This document shows, in pieces, positions 1 to 8,905 of a stretch of 11,183 nt of DNA. The DNA comes from Acidobacteriota bacterium (lineage in GTDB: Bacteria > Acidobacteriota > Vicinamibacteria > Vicinamibacterales > CAVVIG01). The stretch is taken from positions 1 through 11,183 of the forward strand of contig JBKPSC010000194.1 of the NCBI GenBank assembly GCA_046734915.1, given 5' to 3'. Made by a program: the position numbers and the translations under genes. Each line of letters opens with the position of its first letter. Within the stretch, counting starts at the first letter, position 1. The notes under the pieces were generated by a model, which ran no database searches, was not told the DNA's origin, and worked only from the letters and a program-made list of their open reading frames with translations.

Positions 1-42
1 CGTCTGCGCCGAGCACGTCCTCGAGGGCGACGACCCGGTTCG

Positions 43-414
43 TCAGATCGGCAAGGGCCATCCGAAGAAGAGCCGCGCGCCGAGGATCGTGAAGTTGATC
101 TGGACGCCTCCCGAAGGACCTGCGGTGCCGACAAGGGCATACGTGTCGAAGCTGCCGGTCGTGAAGCTGTCGTGGTCGGTCCATCGCCTGAAGTCGTCGG
201 ACTCGAAGATGCGGACCGGCGCACCGAGGTTGATGACTACGGGAACCTCGTTCGACGGAGGTTCGCGCCGATAGAACGGCGTCGCCGTGTGTTCGAACCA
301 GCCGACGTACTCGCGGACGTAGGCGCGCAAGGCGGGCGGAGGCGCGGCAATGGTCATCTCCCACTGGCCGAGAGCCGAGTCGTGGCGGAGAGTGGTGTGT
401 GCGCCAGCCGGCAC
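43..414 (-). CDS. AraC-family regulator, N-terminal ligand-binding/dimerisation-like domain (DUF6597-type). Likely truncated by a frameshift near nt 45-60; the continuation runs in another frame to the window edge.
   Basis: The 123-aa ORF shows the typical DUF6597 pattern (…EVPVVINLGAPVRIF…GVQINFTILGARLFFGWP). The ORF stops at TGA 43-45. In the +1 frame, the ATG at 60-58 opens MALADLTNRVVALEDVLGAD…, which reads like the usual continuation (L.eL.drvv.LedvlG) of such regulators and runs off the window. No helix-turn-helix domain is visible in-window. Confidence 0.5.
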   Translation of the reverse strand: MPAGAHTTLRHDSALGQWEMTIAAPPPALRAYVREYVGWFEHTATPFYRREPPSNEVPVVINLGAPVRIFESDDFRRWTDHDSFTTGSFDTYALVGTAGPSGGVQINFTILGARLFFGWPLPI

Positions 415-493
415 GCGCCGATCGTAGACGCGCCGTGAAGTCGGAGCAAGCGCCCGTAATGAGTCGGCGCGATGCTAAGCTGGCGGCCACACA

Positions 494-1009
494 ATGCGGC
501 CGGTGGTTCGCCTGGCTCGTCGCCGCGCTGCTCTTGCCCTGTTGCTCACAACCGCGGTCGCGCCGGCCTGGGCCGGGTGGTCGAACCCGGCCGCCAGATC
601 GAGTGTACAACCTGCACCGCTTTACGACCTCGAGCGCGACGAGCGGCTCGGCGGTCACACGATTGAGCGCCACGTCGGCCGCAGCGATCGCGAGCTGGCC
701 GACCGGCTCAGACGCGAGCCGTAGATCGGCGCGGCGTCGAGCTATGCCGATCTGGAGACGGCGCAGCGGGTCGTCGGTGACGCAGTGACTCGATCACGCA
801 CGCGAATCGACAGTTGGGTTCGCCGTACAGGATCGCGACCAAACCTGGCGCTCGAGTACGAGGAGGCTGCCGGCCGGCCCATCGGGCGCTCCCTCGCTCG
901 CGGAACGCGCGTGGCGGTCGTCTGCACACGGGCGCTCATCGTGCTGCGGTGGAACGATCGGCAGCAACGTTGGTACGTGCTGACGTCCTATCCGGAGCCG
1001 CCACGGTGA
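494..1009 (+). pseudogene. Secreted bacterial RNase A-like toxin (CdiA-CT RNase A family, PF18431-like) with a signal peptide, interrupted by an in-frame TAG at 722-724.
   Basis: ORFs 494..724 and 785..1009 are in the same frame, separated only by TAG 722-724. The read-through product would be ~171 aa. The N-terminus has a signal peptide: a basic n-region (RPVVRLARRRAA), a hydrophobic core (LALLLTTAVAPAWA) and an A-W-A cleavage-type site. Family motifs present are GGHTIERHVGRSDRELADRLRREP, then IGAASSYADLETAQRVV, then …WV…IGRSLARG…ALIVLRWNDRQQRWYVLTSYPE (the typical vLTaYP C-terminus). TAG is a genuine stop elsewhere in this window (the DUF5916, CHRD and activator genes all end with TAG). Confidence 0.6.
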
Positions 1010-1362
1010 AGCGGAACCGGAAACCACGCCGCTCGCTGACACGGCGGTCGCCGAGTAACGCGAGTATCAACGCGACGGCCGTCAACGCCTCGGCGCTGCC
1101 GCATCTGAGCGCGTTCCTTTCAAGCTATCTTCACCAGGACTTTTTCCTCGACCATCCGACGCCAGGCGCCGCGCTGCGAGCCTATCTCGACGAGTCGAGC
1201 TACGCCGAGCGCCGGGCGCTGCAGCGCGACTGGTCGCGCTTCCTCGAAGCGACCCACGGATGGGCCTGGCGGGACGTGCGACGCGCATTCGCCGATCTCG
1301 GCGGTGCCTGGCTGCCGGCGTCTCGAGCGGCGCTGGCCGATCTGTTCTCGGCCATCAACTGA
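1006..1362 (+). CDS. Hypothetical protein; positional candidate for the immunity/inhibitor protein of the upstream RNase toxin.
   Basis: A GTG start at 1006 overlaps the toxin TGA stop (GTGA, 1006-1009), and a GGAG at 994-997 sits 8 nt upstream, which is classic translational coupling. The C-terminal ~85 aa are non-repetitive and protein-like (LPHLSAFLSSYLHQDFFLDHPTPGAALRAYLDESSYAERRALQRDWSRFLEATHGWAWRDVRRAFADLGGAWLPASRAALADLFSAIN). The N-terminal ~30 aa are basic and low-complexity, so the true start is uncertain. The six-frame track extends this frame to an ATG at 814, but that would overlap the toxin by ~195 nt. The stop is TGA 1360-1362. Confidence 0.45.
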   Translation: MKRNRKPRRSLTRRSPSNASINATAVNASALPHLSAFLSSYLHQDFFLDHPTPGAALRAYLDESSYAERRALQRDWSRFLEATHGWAWRDVRRAFADLGGAWLPASRAALADLFSAIN

Positions 1363-4225
1363 CTGCAGTATCGAGGCGGGTGCCGTCGCCGATCGGCGCG
1401 ACGGCAACGGCTTCCTCCGAGGCGTGGATGGGCAGGCGCACGACGAACTCCGATCCGCAGCCCGGACCGTCGCTTCGCGCTTCGACTTCGCCACCGTGGA
1501 GAACGACGAACCGGCGGACGAGCGCCAGGCCAAGGCCAAGGCCGCCCGTGCCACGATCGAGCGTCTGTGTTCCTTGGCTGAACTCGTCGAAGACCTTGCT
1601 CAACAACTGCTCGCTCATCCCGACGCCGGTATCGCGGACGTGAATCGCGGCGCGGTGCGACGTACTCTCGATCTCCATCCTGAGGGACACAGCGCCACCG
1701 CTCGGCGTGAACTTCTGCGCGTTGTGCAGCAGGTTGCCGACGACCTGCGCGAGCCGCGTGCGATCCCCTTCCACTCGCACCGCCTGTGACAGCAGCTGGA
1801 CCTCGAACTCGATGCCGCGCTCCTCGAACGACGGCCGCAGATCGATCGCCGTCTCGCGAACGACGGCCACGAGATCGATGACCTCTTGTTCGAGCGACAG
1901 TTTGCCGCGCGACAGACGCGACACGTCCAGCAGATCGTCGACGAGACGGACGATATGGGCCAGCTGACGTCCGATAATCTCGCGCGCTGCGGCCTGAGTT
2001 GCGCTGCTGGCCTGAGCGATCTCCAGAATATGGACGGCGTTCTGGATCGGCGCCAGCGGGTTCCGTAGCTCGTGCGCGAGCATCGCCAGGAATTCGTCCT
2101 TCCGCCGGCCTTCTTCGAGCAGCTCACCCTCCGCCACCTTCCGATCGTGAATGTCGACGTAGGTCCCCACACGCTGCAGGATGCGACCATCGTCGCCCGC
2201 GATGGCCACACCGCGGCTCAGGAACCAGCGGTAGGTGCCGTCGCGGCCCCGTAGACGGAATTCGGTTTCGAAGACGGCCCCCGCTTCTGACTCGAACCAC
2301 TCCCGGCGAGCGCTCTCACGATCGTCCGGGTGCACCGGCTCCAGCGCGGCGTCCGTTGCGTCCTCGGCTGGTGTCGGCAGACCCGTGTAATCGGCCCATC
2401 GCGGGCTGAGATACTGCACGCCTCCGGGCTCGGTCACCCACACGATGACCGGGCCCGACTCGGCCAGCGTTCTGAATCGGGCCTCGCTTGCCCGCAGCGC
2501 CTGTTCGGTGCGCTTCTGCTCGGTGACGTCTTCCGCGATGACGCCGACGCCGACGACTGCGTCTCCGATGCTGACCGGAAACCAGTTCTCGCGCCACTCG
2601 CGCCGATCACCCGGTGTCGCCGGCGTTTCTCCGGTGACTTCCACCCCGAGTAGCGGCACACCTGTATCGACGATGCGCCGCAGGTCGGCCATGATGTCGG
2701 ACATGTTCTCGATGCCCGGGAGCAGATCCGGCGGTGTCTTGCCGATGTGCGCGGCGACTGGCAGCCCGTTGATTGAGGCCAGGCGCTCGTTGATCCGCTG
2801 AAAACGCAACTCTCGATCGAGAAAGGCGAGACCGACCGGCGCGCCTTGGAACACCGCATCGAGCTGGGCGTCGGCTCGCGCCAAGGCGTCGGCCGCCAGC
2901 GTGTAGTCGTGGACATCGATGATCGAGCCGACGTAACCGACCGACTTGCCATTCTCGTCCAGTTGAGGCCGCCCGACGTTCATCACCCAGCGGTAACTGC
3001 CATCAGCCGTGCGAATCCGGTAGCGATGCCGAACGAGGGAGCCTTCCTGCATCGCCGCGGCCACACGTTCGCGGGCGCGCTCGCGGTCGTCGGGGTGTAT
3101 CGCCTCCAGCCACTTGAAGTCCAGGCCAGCGCCTTCAGCGAGTCCGGTGAGCTCGTACCAACCGCGGCTCATGAAGGTCCGACGGCCGTCGAGACCGGAC
3201 GCCCATAACATGGCCGGCGCGGTGTCGGCGAACTGCCGGACGCGTGCATCCTGGTCCCGTGCCCGTAGCTCGGCGATCGAGTCTTCGCGCTCGCGCAGGG
3301 CCGCCGCAAAGCACAGAAAACACATCGTCCCGACGCTGACCAACGTTTGGACCACCATCGGCGCGTCGCCCGAGCCGCTGAAGTCGCCAAGGGGTCCGTA
3401 GCCTTCGATCGTTCCACGGATCGTTATCGCGGCCGTCGTGATGAGGCCAACCATGATGCCCTGCGTGCCGAATTTGAACGTGATCCACAGGAGGTATGGC
3501 AGCAGGTAGAACGACGGCCGGTACGGACTGCGAGGGTGCCAGTAGACCGCCCAGACGACGACCAGCAGCGACAGTTGGGCCAGCACCGCTTCGACGGCAC
3601 GCCGGCCGTGCAGCGTGCGCGTCAGGGCCTGCCACTCGTACCGCGGCGTCAAGAGCGGTGGCGCGACGACGAGGACGCCGACGATGTCGGCAACCCACCA
3701 CGTGCGCCACGCGGCCAGAAGCGATCCGCCGTAGTACGACGTTGCCAGCCACGATCCGAGCAAGCCGCCCGGCACGGCGGTCACCAGGGCCGCGACAGTG
3801 ATGAACCGCACGACGTGGGCGACGCGCCCAAGATGAGGCACGCCGCCGAGGGCCCGAAGCAGCGAGGCCCCCGTCAGAGCTTCGACCGTGTTGACCAGTG
3901 CGAAGCCGAATGCAGGCAGCCACGCGCGGGAGGCGACCACGACGTCGGTGCCGACGTTGCCGACGATTGCCCCCGCAACGAGGAAGGGCCAGAGCGATCG
4001 GTCGAGGCGAACCAGCGCCGCGAGGTAGAGCCCGCTTGGCACCCAGACCGTCGCGAAATCACTGGTCCCGACTGACAGCCAGCGGCTGGCCAGCACGCAG
4101 AGACCGTAAAGCGCGGCGAACGCCGGCACGGTCAGTAAACGACTCGTAACAGTCGATGAGGCGGGCGGGCGCGCCAAGGCGGCGTCGAGCGGTCCGGCTG
4201 CAGTCATTGAGTCCGACCGAGCCAT
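1355..4225 (-). CDS. Sensor histidine kinase: N-terminal MASE1-like multi-pass membrane domain, three PAS domains, HisKA and HATPase_c. No receiver domain.
   Basis: HisKA H-box EFLAMLAHELRNPLAP. HATPase_c motifs HNAQKFTPSGG…VRDTGVGMSEQLLSKVFDEF…GTGGLGLGLALVRRFVVLHGGEV. Three PAS-like blocks (e.g. FADTAPAMLWASGLDGRRTFMSRGWYELTG…HPDDRE…YRIRTADGSYRWV; VIVWVTEPGGVQYLSPRWADYTG…HPDD…FRLRGRDGTYRWF). A ~290-aa hydrophobic N-terminus is typical of MASE1. The start is chosen at the ATG at 4225 (MARSDSMTAAG…) because the six-frame ORF's further extension to 4456 overlaps the divergent 2TM gene. Confidence 0.85.
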   Translation of the reverse strand: MARSDSMTAAGPLDAALARPPASSTVTSRLLTVPAFAALYGLCVLASRWLSVGTSDFATVWVPSGLYLAALVRLDRSLWPFLVAGAIVGNVGTDVVVASRAWLPAFGFALVNTVEALTGASLLRALGGVPHLGRVAHVVRFITVAALVTAVPGGLLGSWLATSYYGGSLLAAWRTWWVADIVGVLVVAPPLLTPRYEWQALTRTLHGRRAVEAVLAQLSLLVVVWAVYWHPRSPYRPSFYLLPYLLWITFKFGTQGIMVGLITTAAITIRGTIEGYGPLGDFSGSGDAPMVVQTLVSVGTMCFLCFAAALREREDSIAELRARDQDARVRQFADTAPAMLWASGLDGRRTFMSRGWYELTGLAEGAGLDFKWLEAIHPDDRERARERVAAAMQEGSLVRHRYRIRTADGSYRWVMNVGRPQLDENGKSVGYVGSIIDVHDYTLAADALARADAQLDAVFQGAPVGLAFLDRELRFQRINERLASINGLPVAAHIGKTPPDLLPGIENMSDIMADLRRIVDTGVPLLGVEVTGETPATPGDRREWRENWFPVSIGDAVVGVGVIAEDVTEQKRTEQALRASEARFRTLAESGPVIVWVTEPGGVQYLSPRWADYTGLPTPAEDATDAALEPVHPDDRESARREWFESEAGAVFETEFRLRGRDGTYRWFLSRGVAIAGDDGRILQRVGTYVDIHDRKVAEGELLEEGRRKDEFLAMLAHELRNPLAPIQNAVHILEIAQASSATQAAAREIIGRQLAHIVRLVDDLLDVSRLSRGKLSLEQEVIDLVAVVRETAIDLRPSFEERGIEFEVQLLSQAVRVEGDRTRLAQVVGNLLHNAQKFTPSGGAVSLRMEIESTSHRAAIHVRDTGVGMSEQLLSKVFDEFSQGTQTLDRGTGGLGLGLALVRRFVVLHGGEVEARSDGPGCGSEFVVRLPIHASEEAVAVAPIGDGTRLDTAVS

Positions 4226-4351
4226 GCTCGGCCGTTGTTCTGCCCAGCTTACAACCGCTGCCGCAAAGGATGACGGCAAATCTGAGCTCAGCAGTAGATG
4301 AGTTTGAACTTTCCAGTGAAGCCCACGTCGAATGCGGCTGAGGAGTGACCA

Positions 4352-4573
4352 ATGAGAACGCTGCGTGCCTTGTCGTTTCTTTTCAAGGGACCTTTGATTC
4401 TGGCTTTCCTCTTCCTCATCAACCTGATGACCTCGCCCGGTCACTGGTGGGTCCAATGGGCGGCCCTTGGCATCGGCATCGCCTGGGTTCTCAGCCTCGC
4501 TCGCGTCATCCGCGCCGTCGTTCTGGCTGGCGGGCTGGCGGCCCTTGGCGTCTATCTCGCCAAACGTTCGTAA
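4352..4573 (+). CDS. Small (73 aa) two-helix membrane protein, 2TM-domain-like.
   Basis: A strong SD site (GGAG 4341-4344, 7 nt before the ATG at 4352). Two predicted TM helices (LILAFLFLINLM; WAALGIGIAWVLSLARVI…VVLAGGLAALGVYL) with a W-rich GHWWVQW linker as seen in 2TM proteins. TAA stop. Confidence 0.6.
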   Translation: MRTLRALSFLFKGPLILAFLFLINLMTSPGHWWVQWAALGIGIAWVLSLARVIRAVVLAGGLAALGVYLAKRS

Positions 4574-4583
4574 CTCTGCCGGC

Positions 4584-6878
4584 CTACCAGCGGAACAGAC
4601 GCGTCATCTTCACCACCAGCGAACGGCTCTCGACCTCCGGAAATCCCGAGGTGAGAGTCGTTCGCCCGTCGCTGTACACCACGAACAATTCGCTGCCCGG
4701 CTGATACTCCCAGCGAAGCCGCGCGTTGGTGCTGACGGTGGCGATCCGCGACTGGTACTGCACGAGAGCCGACACGAACATCCGCGGCGAGAGAGTGAAG
4801 GTGGCGCGGCTGCTCAGAAGATTCGTGTCGTCCTGGCCCCATGGCACGTCTACCCGGTTCCACGACAGTGTCGGCTCGGCGTAGAACCGTCGGGTGAATT
4901 CGAGCCGTCCGCGCCACGTCACCTCGATCAGCGTGCCGTCGTAGAATCCGCTCCGCCCGGCGGTGATGCTGCCCGAGATGGGCCGCTGTGATCCGAGCGT
5001 GTACGTGCCCCTGACCTGCGCGAAGTCGTACTCGCCGGGCGGCACGAACAGCTGCCTGCCCACTTCGAATCGGCTGGTCAGCCGCTCGTAGTTGCGGCTG
5101 ACATCCACACTCCAGATGTCGCTGTTGTTCAACTCCATCTGATACGTGCCCTGGGCCTCTTTCGACTCGGGGCGGTTGTGGGTGTCGGTGATGTAGTCGA
5201 CGCTGCCGATGTAATACAGCTTGCGGACGCCGCGCCACTGAGGACGTGGACTGAAGCGCGCCTGACCGTACGACCGGCGGAACGCGGTGCGGCGCAGGAA
5301 TCCGACCTCGGGGTTGAAGTTCGGTTCGACCGTGAGATGTTCGGCCTGCACGCCGTAGCGATCGGCGTTCCAGTCGAATCGCCCGCGGTAGCTCCCGTCA
5401 TCGGTCTCACGCCCCGCCGTACGGGTCCGGGCGGCGTAGCCCGCGATGCTGATCTCGTTGGTGGGGTTCACCACCGTGTCGAGGCCATAGGCGAGGTTGT
5501 CGCCGGTCGATCGTGCGGGGGTCGAAGCCGCCAGCGGATCGCGGCGGCTGACGAGCATCCCGATCCGGCTTCGCCGCAGGACGTCACGGTTGACGCGCAG
5601 CACGGAGAAGTTCGTCGACGCCGCGCGCGCATCCGTCGACTCCGCGGTTTGAATGTTCAAGGCGCCGAACTGCCAGGGTCCGGTTCGGCCCAGCAGGCGG
5701 CCGCCCGCCCGAATCGGCACCTCGAGGCCGTTGTTCAAGCCGATGCGCCGACTGTAGAAGAGCAGCGGCGTCGTGCTGGTGTTCTGGCCGCTGCCCTGGA
5801 CGCCGCCGCCACCGCCGGTCCCGCCGGTGCCGACCGAGCCGCCGCCAAAGTTGAACGTGTCGGCGCCTTCGAGGAAGAAATCGCGTTTCTCGGGAAACTG
5901 CAGGCTGAATCGCGTCAGGTTCACCTGCTGTTCGTCGTCCTCGACTTGGGCGAAGTCGGTGTTGACCGTGAAGTCGGCGACCAGCGTCTGGCGGACGCCC
6001 CATTTCACGTCCAAGCCGAGGTCGGCATCCGGATCGTTCGATCGCGTCGGCGAAGCGTTGCGATCCGTCAGCATCGAGCCGAGCGCGTACGGCTTGACGT
6101 CGATGTTTCGCAGCTTGCCAGGGACCTCGAGATTGCCGACTGCGGCAGCCACCGACATCTTCGACAGCGCGGGCCGGCCCCATGACGCCAGCACCGGCAC
6201 CAGAAAGCTGACCTCGTTCTTGAAGGCCACGCGACGGCGGAAGTTCATGCCCCAGACGTGACCGTTCTCGCGGAACCGGAACGAGCGAAAGGGATAGCGG
6301 ATTTCGATCGTCCAACCGCCGGCGAATTCCCCGGTCCGGGCGTCCCAGATGCCGTTCCAGTTGTTGTTCGGCTGCTCGTTGGTGATGGACCAATCGAGCA
6401 TGCCGCCCTGCGGGTTGATGGCGAAGCCGTAGCCGTTGTGACGGTCGTAGAACGAGTCGAATGCCACCCCGAAGTGATCGTTGGCGTACAAGTTGTTGGC
6501 GTCCCGTCGCATCTCGGTCGAGAGGCGGTGTCCCGGCTCCGTTTCCCACAGCCTGGCCGACACATACAGCGCGTCATCGTCGTAAAAGAGCCACACCTCA
6601 GTCCGATCGGTGGCCGGCTGGCCCTCGCGGGGCTCCTGTTGGACGAAATCACCAAAGGAGGGGACGCCCTCGTAAAACGCTTCGTCCAGCCGGCCATCGA
6701 GGCTGACGGGGCCAGGTAGCCGCAAGGCGCGAACCGTAATACGGCCCTCCGCGTCGCGGGCAATGACGTCCGGCGGCGCCGGAACGGCGGGTCCTTCGAT
6801 CAACGGATCAACGGAAGGTTGGGCAGAGAGCGGAGTCGATAGAGCGAGCGCGCACAGCGCGAATCCGAGGCACCTCAT
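4584..6878 (-). CDS. CBM9-like / DUF5916 family secreted outer-membrane-type protein.
   Basis: N-terminal signal peptide (MRCLGFALCALALSTPLSA|QP). CBM9-like block (…ITVRALRLPGPVSLDGRLDEAFYEGVPSFGDFVQQEPREGQPATDRTEVWLFYDDDALYVSARLWE…). Long beta-rich body ending in the aromatic C-terminus …MTRLFRW, typical of this family. ATG at 6878 (an alternative TTG at 6881); TAG stop at 4584-4586. Confidence 0.8.
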   Translation of the reverse strand: MRCLGFALCALALSTPLSAQPSVDPLIEGPAVPAPPDVIARDAEGRITVRALRLPGPVSLDGRLDEAFYEGVPSFGDFVQQEPREGQPATDRTEVWLFYDDDALYVSARLWETEPGHRLSTEMRRDANNLYANDHFGVAFDSFYDRHNGYGFAINPQGGMLDWSITNEQPNNNWNGIWDARTGEFAGGWTIEIRYPFRSFRFRENGHVWGMNFRRRVAFKNEVSFLVPVLASWGRPALSKMSVAAAVGNLEVPGKLRNIDVKPYALGSMLTDRNASPTRSNDPDADLGLDVKWGVRQTLVADFTVNTDFAQVEDDEQQVNLTRFSLQFPEKRDFFLEGADTFNFGGGSVGTGGTGGGGGVQGSGQNTSTTPLLFYSRRIGLNNGLEVPIRAGGRLLGRTGPWQFGALNIQTAESTDARAASTNFSVLRVNRDVLRRSRIGMLVSRRDPLAASTPARSTGDNLAYGLDTVVNPTNEISIAGYAARTRTAGRETDDGSYRGRFDWNADRYGVQAEHLTVEPNFNPEVGFLRRTAFRRSYGQARFSPRPQWRGVRKLYYIGSVDYITDTHNRPESKEAQGTYQMELNNSDIWSVDVSRNYERLTSRFEVGRQLFVPPGEYDFAQVRGTYTLGSQRPISGSITAGRSGFYDGTLIEVTWRGRLEFTRRFYAEPTLSWNRVDVPWGQDDTNLLSSRATFTLSPRMFVSALVQYQSRIATVSTNARLRWEYQPGSELFVVYSDGRTTLTSGFPEVESRSLVVKMTRLFRW

Positions 6879-7085
6879 CAACCGACCATTGTAGTTTACG
6901 CACCGGCGTCGGTCTTTCTCGAATCGTAAGCCTGAATCGATCTGGCCGCCGGCGCGAATCCGGTGTATCTAATTGGCGCGCCATTGGTTGGCTGTTGGTC
7001 GCGTACTTGGTCCGGTTCGTGCCTAGCCGCCGGTCGCAACGTGCAGTCTTGTGATTCCTACCCCCAACTGTCGAAAGGAGTCGAT

Positions 7086-7577
7086 ATGCATCTCTCAGCG
7101 GTGCGCAGGATTCTGTTGGTCGTGGCGTTCGTCAGCCTGGCGGCGCTTCCGGCTTCGGCCCAAACATACACTCTTACCGCAAACCTGTCGGGTGCGAGCG
7201 AAGTCCCGATCATTGGCACCGGAGCCTTCGGCACCGCAACGGTCGTTGTCGACTTGGGGGCGCGCACGGTCAACTACCGTGTCGACGTATTCAACCTTCC
7301 CAGCGGCGTCACGGTCAGCCACATCCACGTCGGTCCGCCTGGATTCGCCGGCCCGGTCGTGATTAATTTCGCCCCACCAGTGACCGCCTCGAACGATTTC
7401 GCGTACAGCGGCACCGTTCGTGACACTGAGTTCGCCCTGCAGCCGAACCTGGGCATTCGTTCGGCAGACGACATGTTCCAGGCCATCATCGGCGGCAACA
7501 CCTACGTGAACGTCCACTCGCAGGTGAACGGTGGCGGCGAAATCCGCGGCCAGTTGACGCTCAGCACGACCCGCTAG
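7086..7577 (+). CDS. Secreted CHRD-domain protein (163 aa).
   Basis: GGAG at 7077-7080, 5 nt before the ATG at 7086. Signal peptide MHLSAVRRILLVVAFVSLAALPASA|QT. CHRD hallmarks: LSGASEVP…GTATVVVDL…VNYRVDV…VTVSHIHVGPPGFAGPVVINF…IIGGNTYVNVHSQVNGGGEIRGQL. Confidence 0.85.
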   Translation: MHLSAVRRILLVVAFVSLAALPASAQTYTLTANLSGASEVPIIGTGAFGTATVVVDLGARTVNYRVDVFNLPSGVTVSHIHVGPPGFAGPVVINFAPPVTASNDFAYSGTVRDTEFALQPNLGIRSADDMFQAIIGGNTYVNVHSQVNGGGEIRGQLTLSTTR

Positions 7578-8905
7578 CCGCGGTAGCGAAGCCGACGCTT
7601 CATCGCCCTCACGGTGCCGCCCGGATCGCGGGCGGCACCGCGTCCCACTGTCCCCAGCAGCCTGGCCGCTTTCGTTGCGTTCCCACCCGACTCGCCGAGC
7701 GCGGCCGAGAGCGCGGTTTTCTCCAGCGCTTCGATTTCCTCCCGGAGATTCATCCGGCCCTCCCGGATCTTGGTCCGGATGAGCGACGCGTCGGCGACCG
7801 GCGTCAGACCGGTCGTCGAGTCGCGGAGAATACGCCGCGGGAGGTCGGACAACAGCAGCTCCTGCCCGGTGCGCTTGTAGACGAGCGACTCGTAGATCAC
7901 GTTGCGCAACTCGCGGATGTTGCCCGGCCACGGATACGTGGCGAGCGCACGCAACGCCTCCGGCTGCACCGATGCCAGCCGCGGCTGCTTCTGCTCCCGC
8001 GCGAACCGATCGAGCATGTGGTCGACGAGCGCCGGGAGATCCTCGAGGCGTTCCCTCAGCGGCGGCAGATGGATGCGGACAATGGCCAGCCGCTCGTAGA
8101 GATCCGCTCCGAAGGCGCCGGCGGCGACCAGCGGCTCGAGATCGCGGTTGGTCGCGGCGATGATGCGGAAATCGACCTCGCGCCACACGTTTTCTCCGAG
8201 CCGGCTGACCGTCCGGTCTTCGAGCACGCGCAGCAGCTTGACCTGGGTTTCGAGCGGCGTGTCGTCGATTTCGTCCAGAAAGACCGTGCCACCCTCCGCC
8301 GCGGCGAGCTGGCCGTCATATGCCTGAACGGCACCCGAGAAGGCGCCACGCGCGTAGCCGAAGAGCTCGGCTTCCATCAACTCGTTCGGGATGGCGGCGC
8401 AGTTGATCGGCACGAACCGGTGCTGGCGCCGAGCCGACCACGTGTGAATCAGTCGGGCAAACACCTCCTTGCCAGTGCCGGTTTCTCCGGTGAGAAGAAT
8501 TGCCATCGAGGTCCGGGCCGCCCGCGCGGCGTGGGCGGCGAGGGCCTCCGAGCGCGGGCTCCTCGCCACGAGGTGGTCGGCTTTCGGCGGCGCCGGCTCC
8601 GGCACCAGCATCTCGTTTAGCCGCGCCATCAGACGGGGCGTGGCATCCGCCGCGCCCGTCCAGATGACGTCGTACGCGCCGCGCAGAATGGCGTCGGCGA
8701 CCTGCGCATCGGGCGGCCGCGCGGCCGTCAGCCACACCCAGCGTCCTCGCGGCAAATCGGGTGACGGGACGCGACGTCCCGAGACGGACGATACGACGTG
8801 CGGCAAATCCTCGGGTGCCTCGCGATCGACGGTCAGGGCCTGTTCGGCCAAGGCCGCCAGCATGACTCGTGACGGCGGCGTTCCCATCCAAGCGATCGAG
8901 TGCAT
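7574..8905 (-). CDS. Sigma-54-dependent transcriptional activator (bacterial enhancer-binding protein, bEBP): degenerate receiver-like N-terminal domain, AAA+ sigma-54 interaction domain, C-terminal HTH.
   Basis: Walker A ([14 protein letters not shown]). Walker B and sensor motifs ([11 protein letters not shown]…). The GAFTGA-loop position reads [12 protein letters not shown], a substituted GAFTGA. Also [12 protein letters not shown]…, [11 protein letters not shown], and a C-terminal Fis-type HTH remnant. The N-terminal ~140 aa resemble only the second half of a REC domain ([31 protein letters not shown]) and lack the canonical acidic pocket. Confidence 0.85.

Follow-up and report, generated by a model that had tools for sequence, protein, structure and literature searches.

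Positions 494-1009 of the 11,183-bp DNA stretch analysed here (the window, which is one entire NCBI contig) encode an RNase A-like ribonuclease whose reading frame is broken by a single amber codon, and the immunity gene that overlaps its end is intact. Judged from its sequence, the locus belongs to a known kind of self-contained two-gene cassette, namely an exported RNase together with its protective inhibitor. The amber codon lies at 722-724, replaced an ancestral CAG codon and is private to the window sequence. We favour, with somewhat better than even confidence, a real and recent loss-of-function allele that retained its immunity gene over an assembly error. The features of the window are as follows.

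1-451, minus strand: 5' part of an AraC-type regulator gene (DUF6597 + HTH_18), divergent from the toxin gene and running off the contig end
494-1009, plus strand: RNase A-like ribonuclease (toxin) gene, 171 codons with one internal amber (translation, PF18431 and 5E3E_B matches)
494-574, plus strand: predicted N-terminal export signal, residues 1-27 (hydropathy heuristic)
653-994, plus strand: RNAse_A_bac domain, residues 54-167 (PF18431 match)
722-724, plus strand: amber codon 77 (TAG), a C-to-T transition at 722 relative to CAG in three close relatives
994-997, plus strand: Shine-Dalgarno-like GGAG motif, 8 nt 5' of the immunity start (read from the sequence; putative function)
1006-1362, plus strand: intact CdiI_2-family immunity (RNase inhibitor) gene, 118 aa (PF18593 match)
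1355-4456, minus strand: MASE1-PAS-HisKA-HATPase kinase gene (Pfam), its 3' end overlapping the immunity gene by 8 nt
4584-6881, minus strand: gene of a DUF5916 protein (Pfam), ending in TAG
6963-7577, plus strand: gene of a CHRD protein (Pfam), ending in TAG
7574-8905, minus strand: gene of a sigma-54 activator (Pfam), ending in TAG
Remainder of the contig: gene of an SPFH protein (Pfam)

An RNase A-like toxin gene with one internal stop

Translation of 494-1009 gave a single frame of 171 codons, in which TAG at 722-724 is the sole internal stop and TGA at 1007-1009 the terminal one. The mechanical ORF list splits this frame into one ORF of 76 aa (494-724) and one of 74 aa (785-1009), and the earlier note had joined them into one protein of about 171 aa split only by the TAG, which our translation confirms. 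The note had also recognized the motif order of an RNase A-like toxin. The motifs that it quoted, GGHTIERHVG, AASSYADLETAQRVV and VLTSYPE, are present in the translation, and the profile search of the read-through protein, proposed there as a check, was clearly positive: with X at codon 77, the conceptual toxin matched the full PF18431 (RNAse_A_bac) profile (1-113 of 113) with 101 bits and E=9.5e-29, the gathering cut-off being 27 bits. Because residues 54-167 are covered by one alignment, the match spans both sides of the TAG. The combination of reading frame and family match at 494-1009 is far beyond chance. The coding sequence of a functional PF18431 member is uninterrupted; that of the window toxin is broken by the TAG at codon 77.

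A phmmer comparison of the conceptual toxin with the PDB matched 5E3E_B, the CdiA-CT RNase of Yersinia kristensenii, with E=1.1e-13. The residues H60, R71, T164 and Y166 align to His175, Arg186, Thr276 and Tyr278, the active-site residues of that toxin (PMC5435912), and all four columns are invariant among 44 homologues. The Pfam scan of the toxin and the immunity gene returned nothing at E<=1 beyond PF18431 and PF18593. A scan of 300-1600 for promoter and terminator consensus sequences found none, and a repeat search of 1-1700 gave short matches at chance level only.

Upstream of the domain, the toxin is predicted to carry the N-terminal export signal that the earlier note had ascribed to it. 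By a hydropathy heuristic, the signal has a basic n-region (RLARRR), the h-region AALALLLTTAVAPAWA and a putative cleavage site between AWA and G, and the hydrophobic stretch AALALLLTTAVA has a mean Kyte-Doolittle value of 2.25. The heuristic classifies the signal as Sec-type; a Tat-like RRxAL is also there. No lipobox Cys was found, nor any Cys within the N-terminal 50 residues of the toxin. A comparable hydrophobic N-terminal stretch was detected by the same approach in 108 of 121 family members, and a lipobox-like Cys, again heuristically, in 35 of the 121. The toxin gene thus reads as a signal peptide joined to a 114-residue RNase domain by a linker of about 25 residues.

The immunity gene completes a two-gene cassette

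The earlier note had called the toxin gene standalone. This description is inaccurate, as the gene that follows, at 1006-1362, is a CdiI_2 immunity gene and overlaps the toxin stop, its GTG start at 1006 sharing the sequence GTGA with the toxin TGA. The GGAG motif at 994-997 is made by conserved Pro-Glu codons of the toxin itself. The immunity protein matched PF18593 (CdiI_2) with 37.7 bits and E=3.7e-9 against a cut-off of 26.7, and a profile built from 79 downstream ORFs of the family matched 5E3E_A, the CdiI of Y. kristensenii, with E=3.8e-6. In the alignment of these 79 ORFs, D45 of the window protein (motif YLHQD) is the sole invariant internal residue and aligns to Asp21 of the Y. kristensenii CdiI, which forms salt bridges with Arg174 and the catalytic His175 of its toxin (Batot et al. 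2017, PMC5435912). Arg174 and His175 have their counterparts in R59 and H60 of the window toxin, both of which are invariant. Since the hydropathy heuristic detected no hydrophobic segment in the immunity protein, its location is presumably cytoplasmic.

Homology to these proteins indicates how an intact cassette would operate. Gene 1 would produce a ribonuclease that is exported by its signal peptide and whose His/Arg/Tyr(Thr) site cleaves RNA. The co-translated CdiI_2 inhibitor would remain in the cytoplasm and plug the active site of the RNase as in the 5E3E complex, probably with immunity Asp45 set against toxin Arg59 and His60. In this way, the inhibitor would protect the producer, following the logic of barnase and barstar.

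The cassette is common in Acidobacteriota

A search of a collection of 5.8 billion proteins recovered 584 toxin homologues at E<=0.001, and all 120 listed of the 584 are 128-267 aa long with PF18431 as the only domain. In a GTDB scan with one genome per species, we found 382 toxin-encoding loci. The best 80 of the 382 belong mostly to Acidobacteriota (Vicinamibacterales, Holophagales, Thermoanaerobaculia, Terriglobales), with a minority in Chloroflexota, Verrucomicrobiota and Acidimicrobiia. Directly 3' of the toxin, 78 of these 80 loci have an ORF of 96-137 aa, mostly with a 4-nt NTGA overlap, and in the remaining two the sequence ends before the position of a downstream ORF. PF18593 (CdiI_2) was matched by 78 of 79 downstream ORFs, the window's own included. 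The clustering of flanking ORFs revealed no conserved family other than the immunity gene in more than 8 of the 80 loci, and no secretion or delivery partner is conserved near the toxin in the 80 related loci. The family identity of both genes and the conservation of the cassette are hereby established by sequence comparison.

The nearest named relatives of the toxin, and likewise those of the sigma-54 activator of the same contig, come from Vicinamibacterales MAGs, in which proteins named by NCBI as "RNase A-like domain-containing protein" are 54-58% identical to the window toxin. The contig itself is therefore probably from a Vicinamibacterales-like member of Acidobacteriota, and the window toxin belongs to a large, uncharacterised clade of this phylum.

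It had been suggested in the earlier note that a free-standing copy with a signal peptide is unusual. With more than 580 homologues, of which the 120 listed are all 128-267 aa long, 382 GTDB loci, the naming by NCBI and the published stand-alone forms, this suggestion is unsupported. A 2017 study described exported stand-alone RNase A-like forms, accompanied by immunity genes, for Bacillus lipoproteins (PMC5435912), and Mushegian et al. likewise noted stand-alone RNase A-like ORFs (PMC7297114). The cassette of signal peptide, RNase A-like domain and CdiI_2 is very common in Acidobacteriota, where it occurs without a conserved delivery partner.

The amber codon replaced a glutamine codon

The protein nearest to the window toxin, P0001 (ENA ERZ27257663; locus L001), is intact at 171 aa and 95% identical, and it reads ...RREPQIGAASS... 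around codon 77. A DNA alignment of 1.5 kb between the window and L001 gave 96.5% identity, with C in L001 opposite T722 as the sole mismatch within the stop codon. Two further loci read CAG at codon 77, namely L082 (Ga0075421_100381793), found by a pattern scan of JGI metagenomes, and L083 (ENA ERZ27257732, k141_2681301). All three relatives come from other metagenomes and show about 96-97% nucleotide identity to the window. An in-frame stop occurs in none of 82 aligned toxin homologues, a set that excludes L083. Across 43 sequences, the codon-77 column contains Gln 23 times; the other members have N, R, G, H, D, K or S there, and a stop never occurs. From the CAG in the three relatives and the absence of stops among the 82 homologues it follows that the TAG at 722-724 is a private, derived C-to-T change. 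The alignment of orthologues suggested by the earlier note thereby names the sense codon that was replaced, CAG for Gln. In CdiA-CT of Y. kristensenii, codon 77 corresponds to Asn191, which adjoins the loop overlaying the catalytic Lys of angiogenin and whose N191A substitution did not reduce activity (PMC5435912).

The consequences for the product were examined on an AlphaFold (AF2) model of P0001, the intact 95%-identical orthologue, standing in for the window toxin. The model has a mean pLDDT of 89.4, with values of about 95-98 across the domain, and its top match in the PDB by Foldseek was 5E3E_B (E=1.3e-10, TM(target) 0.87, rmsd 2.3 Å). Residue 77 lies between a helix (65-74) and the first strand (80-84). 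As projected on the model, the truncated toxin keeps three helices with His60 and Arg71 and loses all six strands together with Thr164 and Tyr166.

The CAG-to-TAG change at nucleotide 722 would thus end translation of the RNase at residue 76, and about 49 residues would be left after removal of the signal peptide. As this product would be without every beta-strand and without Thr164 and Tyr166, it is predicted to be inactive as an RNase. The inhibitor, on the other hand, should still be producible because its gene is undamaged, and a GGAG motif of its own, 8 nt upstream of the start, makes its independent translation plausible despite the amber codon. Translational coupling to the toxin would be lost, with possible polarity after the amber. 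A cell carrying the window allele would hence be an immune non-producer.

We also considered an RNase S-like reconstitution from the products of the two ORFs, 494-724 and 785-1009, and rejected it on the start and the compartment of the second. ORF 2 starts at residue 98 and therefore contains neither strand 80-84 nor half of helix 87-100. Moreover, it has no signal peptide, whereas fragment 1 would be exported.

The stop codon is unlikely to be recoded

In principle, the TAG could be functional, with programmed read-through, amber suppression or recoding keeping the RNase at a low and safe level. The undamaged remainder of the toxin ORF would agree with such a function. So would the base that follows the stop, which is A, since TAG-A is not the strongest terminator context. 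However, three intact genes of the same contig end normally in TAG, those of the DUF5916 protein, the CHRD protein and the sigma-54 activator. The earlier note had pointed to at least three genes using TAG as a bona fide stop and had deemed a reassignment unlikely, and we agree on both counts: recoding is unlikely where TAG is an ordinary stop. No tRNA gene, and hence no suppressor tRNA, was found in the window, and an Rfam search over the whole window detected no RNA family. Neither is the stop a conserved feature, given that L001, L082, L083 and all 82 aligned homologues are free of it. We therefore rejected reassignment and suppression and regard a functional TAG as extremely improbable.

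A recent mutation or an assembly error

The earlier note had offered a nonsense mutation or a sequencing error as the simplest explanations, and these are indeed the two live readings. Its mention of a domesticated toxin found no support, as the gene is without other lesions once the stop is set aside. The 76-aa toxin fragment is on record as P0123. An exact-sequence look-up found no second assembly with an identical immunity protein, 76-aa fragment or sigma-54 activator.

The four-way alignment with L001, L082 and L083 revealed 41 differences private to the window, of which 13 lie in the AraC part, two in the intergenic region, 10 in the toxin gene, 10 in the immunity gene and six in the 3' end of the kinase gene. 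Their even spread over all genes points to true divergence between strains, of about 2.7%. Three of these differences stand out as unusual, namely the amber at 722, a 1-nt deletion at 430/431 and a GGGG-to-GGG change at 55-57, and all three are located at most 724 nt from one contig end. The change at 55-57 frameshifts the AraC-type regulator, which is 300 aa long in L001, between DUF6597 and HTH_18, and the ORF stops at position 43. The deletion at 430/431 affects either the 5' leader of the same gene or an extension of its N-terminus. Two adjacent genes accordingly carry disruptive differences, the AraC frameshift and the toxin amber. The rest of the contig, some 10 kb, contains five large ORFs, all unbroken.

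One possible explanation is that the toxin gene is intact in the organism and that T722 is an artefact of assembly or sequencing or a minority variant, and likewise both upstream deletions. We take this explanation seriously and consider it quite possible, if not the one to be expected. The three anomalies are close to one end of a short contig from a metagenome, a part in which assemblies are at their least trustworthy, and the G4-to-G3 homopolymer change is a classic type of error. Stop aside, the toxin ORF is perfect with every conserved residue kept, the immunity gene and the coupling overlap are intact, and L001, L082 and L083 all read CAG. The frameshift of L083, described below, likewise lies in a short contig, whose end is about 140 nt away. 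However, the other 38 private differences look genuine, being evenly spread with many at third codon positions, and the five large ORFs of the remaining 10 kb or so contain no frameshift. Besides, a contig of 11 kb suggests a short-read assembly, in which single-base indels are rare. Finally, the independent contig L083 also has a disabled toxin with several lesions.

L083 bears four private changes, all of them inside the toxin: P42L, D45G, G113E and, near codon 131, a -1 frameshift at a GGG-to-GG site. The column of D45G holds Asp in 41 of 43 sequences and that of G113E holds Gly in 43 of 43. The 820 nt of AraC sequence in L083 show no private change. Because this independent toxin is disabled as well, loss-of-function alleles plausibly circulate. 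Furthermore, the toxin sites 582-598 and 823-873 group the four alleles in incompatible ways, which suggests recombination among co-existing strains.

On the lineage of the window, the ratio of non-synonymous to synonymous changes is 5:6 in the toxin gene and 6:4 in the immunity gene, and these changes are too few to show relaxed selection. As the toxin fares no worse than the immunity gene, there is no signature of long-term decay. The window toxin, stop aside, also keeps the family consensus at conserved sites such as Y84 and G127. The kept consensus, taken with a toxin ratio resembling that of the immunity gene, suggests that the amber lesion is recent. A real and recent loss-of-function allele remains the reading that we prefer.

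Among the four near-identical alleles, two are intact and two are disabled by different lesions, the amber in the window and the frameshift in L083. These alleles raise the idea that an exported RNase has been knocked out repeatedly and independently, with the inhibitor kept, in one uncultured Vicinamibacterales-like soil population, an idea that we put forward tentatively and think rather unlikely. If true, it would amount to a natural "immune non-producer" or cheater polymorphism for a secreted nuclease. If reads confirm the lesions, the locus would represent a small natural producer/non-producer polymorphism in an uncultured soil lineage.

The AraC-type gene was considered as a conserved partner of the cassette and rejected. 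By tblastn, it stands beside the toxin only in L001 and L082 among 82 loci, as it also does in L083, and it is thus a neighbour in the closest relatives only. Given the co-occurring frameshift, the regulator could control the cassette in this lineage.

For annotation, we propose to describe 494-1009 as a pseudogene, or to flag it as a possible error, and 1006-1362 as an immunity gene. The window locus is one more copy, a disabled one, of a family already recognised by Pfam and NCBI. The intact relative P0001 and its immunity gene provide an easy experimental entry point to the role of the cassette.

Comparison with known systems

Both genes of the window are homologous to the two chains of the CdiA-CT/CdiI complex from Y. 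kristensenii ATCC 33638 (5E3E). The window pair resembles this complex in the predicted fold of the toxin (TM 0.87), the His/Arg/Thr/Tyr site, the Asp of the immunity protein and the order of toxin and then immunity gene. In contrast to CdiA-CT, the window toxin is a protein of 171 aa behind a plain signal peptide and with its own start codon. It has no VENN motif, no cytoplasm-entry domain, no cdiA and no cdiB. The identity between the two toxins is about 34%, and the window copy is stopped by the amber. A Pfam search of the window ORFs for genes of a CDI system found no TPS, haemagglutinin or POTRA genes. With neither a large exoprotein nor cdiB, the window protein is not a CdiA.

Barnase of Bacillus amyloliquefaciens is a small Sec-exported RNase with a co-encoded cytoplasmic inhibitor, barstar, which blocks the active site with an acidic residue. 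The earlier note had likened the locus to a barnase/barstar-type module. The logic of this comparison stands, by virtue of the CdiI_2 gene. Homology is not indicated, as there is no Pfam match to barnase or barstar and neither occurs among the listed fold matches from the PDB. The two pairs are unrelated in fold and in family, and the likeness is an analogy rather than a membership.

Ribocin (RbcN) of Pseudomonas aeruginosa is, as far as the accessible part of its description goes, similar to the window toxin in being a stand-alone RNase A fold with a periplasmic signal peptide. That part of the report gives 15% identity to CdiA-CT of Y. kristensenii, eukaryotic ribosomes as the target, and His, Thr and Tyr among the proposed catalytic residues (PMC13189344, 2026). 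It mentions no cognate immunity gene, and the likeness to the window toxin is one of description.

The lipoproteins of B. cereus and B. anthracis (PMC5435912; NF041883) are similar to the window toxin in combining an export signal with an RNase A-like domain within about 150-200 aa, next to an immunity gene. Against the NCBIfam model NF041883 (RNase_A_lipo), the window toxin scored 56.6 bits at a cut-off of 200. With this score and without a lipobox cysteine, it lies outside this narrow Bacillus model.

For the Bacillus lipoprotein homologues, Batot et al. proposed a role in nucleotide scavenging (PMC5435912). The intact family could likewise consist of exported RNases that digest or scavenge RNA in the periplasm or outside the cell, rather than of interbacterial toxins, with CdiI_2 serving only as a cytoplasmic safety inhibitor in the manner of barstar, and losing the enzyme would mean the loss of a dispensable or "public-good" enzyme and no disarmament. 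This alternative concerns function only and fits the main anatomy of the cassette. We rate it as nearly, although not quite, an even prospect. Besides the role proposed for the Bacillus proteins, it draws on the architecture of the toxin, which consists of a 114-aa RNase behind a short linker and a signal peptide, with no delivery, receptor-binding or translocation domain. Further arguments for it are the absence of conserved secretion-system genes nearby, the lipobox-like, possibly tethering Cys in 35 of 121 homologues (by the heuristic) and the 382 loci in the GTDB species-genome collection. However, toxin and inhibitor alike have homologues in a proven CDI toxin/immunity pair. In addition, close strains frequently show non-synonymous differences in both genes, and the alleles are mosaic, as would be expected of conflict systems. 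Toxin loss with immunity kept, which is the preferred reading of the window allele, is familiar from bacteriocin, CDI and T6SS systems.

Damaged and possibly mosaic alleles of the toxin gene

The 76-aa toxin fragment of the window is already on record in the protein collection as P0123, with NCBI as its source. The contig listed for P0123 measures 11,183 nt, exactly as long as the window, which thus appears to be an entire NCBI contig; exact-sequence queries with the proteins of the window nonetheless gave no record. A second damaged allele was found in L083, the third close relative of the window toxin among the metagenome sequences:

865-1353, ENA ERZ27257732, contig k141_2681301: L083 toxin gene

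Codon 77 of this allele is CAG, and the gene carries its own -1 frameshift at about codon 131, where GGG has become GG. It also bears P42L, D45G and G113E, all in columns that are conserved or invariant. In the four-way alignment of the window with its relatives L001, L082 and L083, all four of the differences carried by L083 only lie inside the toxin, and the 820 nt of the AraC-type gene present in L083 contain none.

The same four alleles group differently along the toxin gene. At sites 582-598 the alleles pair as window with L082 and L001 with L083, whereas at sites 823-873 the window pairs with L083 and L001 with L082. The mutual incompatibility of these two groupings suggests that recombination has occurred inside the toxin gene between co-existing strains.

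Genes flanking the toxin

Divergent from the toxin gene lies a regulator:

43-451, minus strand: AraC-type regulator (DUF6597 and HTH_18), frameshifted

The copy in L001 is unbroken and encodes 300 aa. The window ORF stops at 43 because of a 1-nt deletion (GGGG to GGG) in a G-run at 55-57, and a second 1-nt deletion is located at 430/431, 16 nt upstream of the GTG start at 414. Neither deletion is present in L001 or L082.

In the immunity gene, codon 40 (window 1123) encodes Ser, directly N-terminal of the conserved YLH-D motif. The relatives have Gly (72/78) or Ala (6/78) at this position; the L001 and L082 immunity proteins have Gly. The substitution may have no effect, may be compensatory or may mark the onset of relaxed constraint. 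The immunity gene and a convergent MASE1/PAS histidine-kinase gene, the latter encoded on the minus strand and ending in TGA, overlap by 8 nt (1355-1362) at their 3' ends.

Other genes of the window

Among the further genes are:

4584-6881, minus strand: DUF5916 protein, 765 aa (partial profile match)
6963-7577, plus strand: CHRD-domain gene
7574-8905, minus strand: sigma-54 activator gene

The DUF5916 match is confined to profile positions 18-86 of 572, and outside this part and a sub-threshold CBM9-like stretch the protein gave no family match. The CHRD and sigma-54 activator genes are convergent, and their TAG stops overlap in a palindromic CTAG (7574-7577) common to both 3' ends. Pfam returned no match for the first ~112 residues of the activator and no receiver domain in the protein; its relatives are labelled 'NtrC family response regulator' by their sources. 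The best database match of the activator reaches just 74% identity, whereas three other metagenomes contain relatives of the toxin region that are ~96-97% identical in nucleotide sequence.
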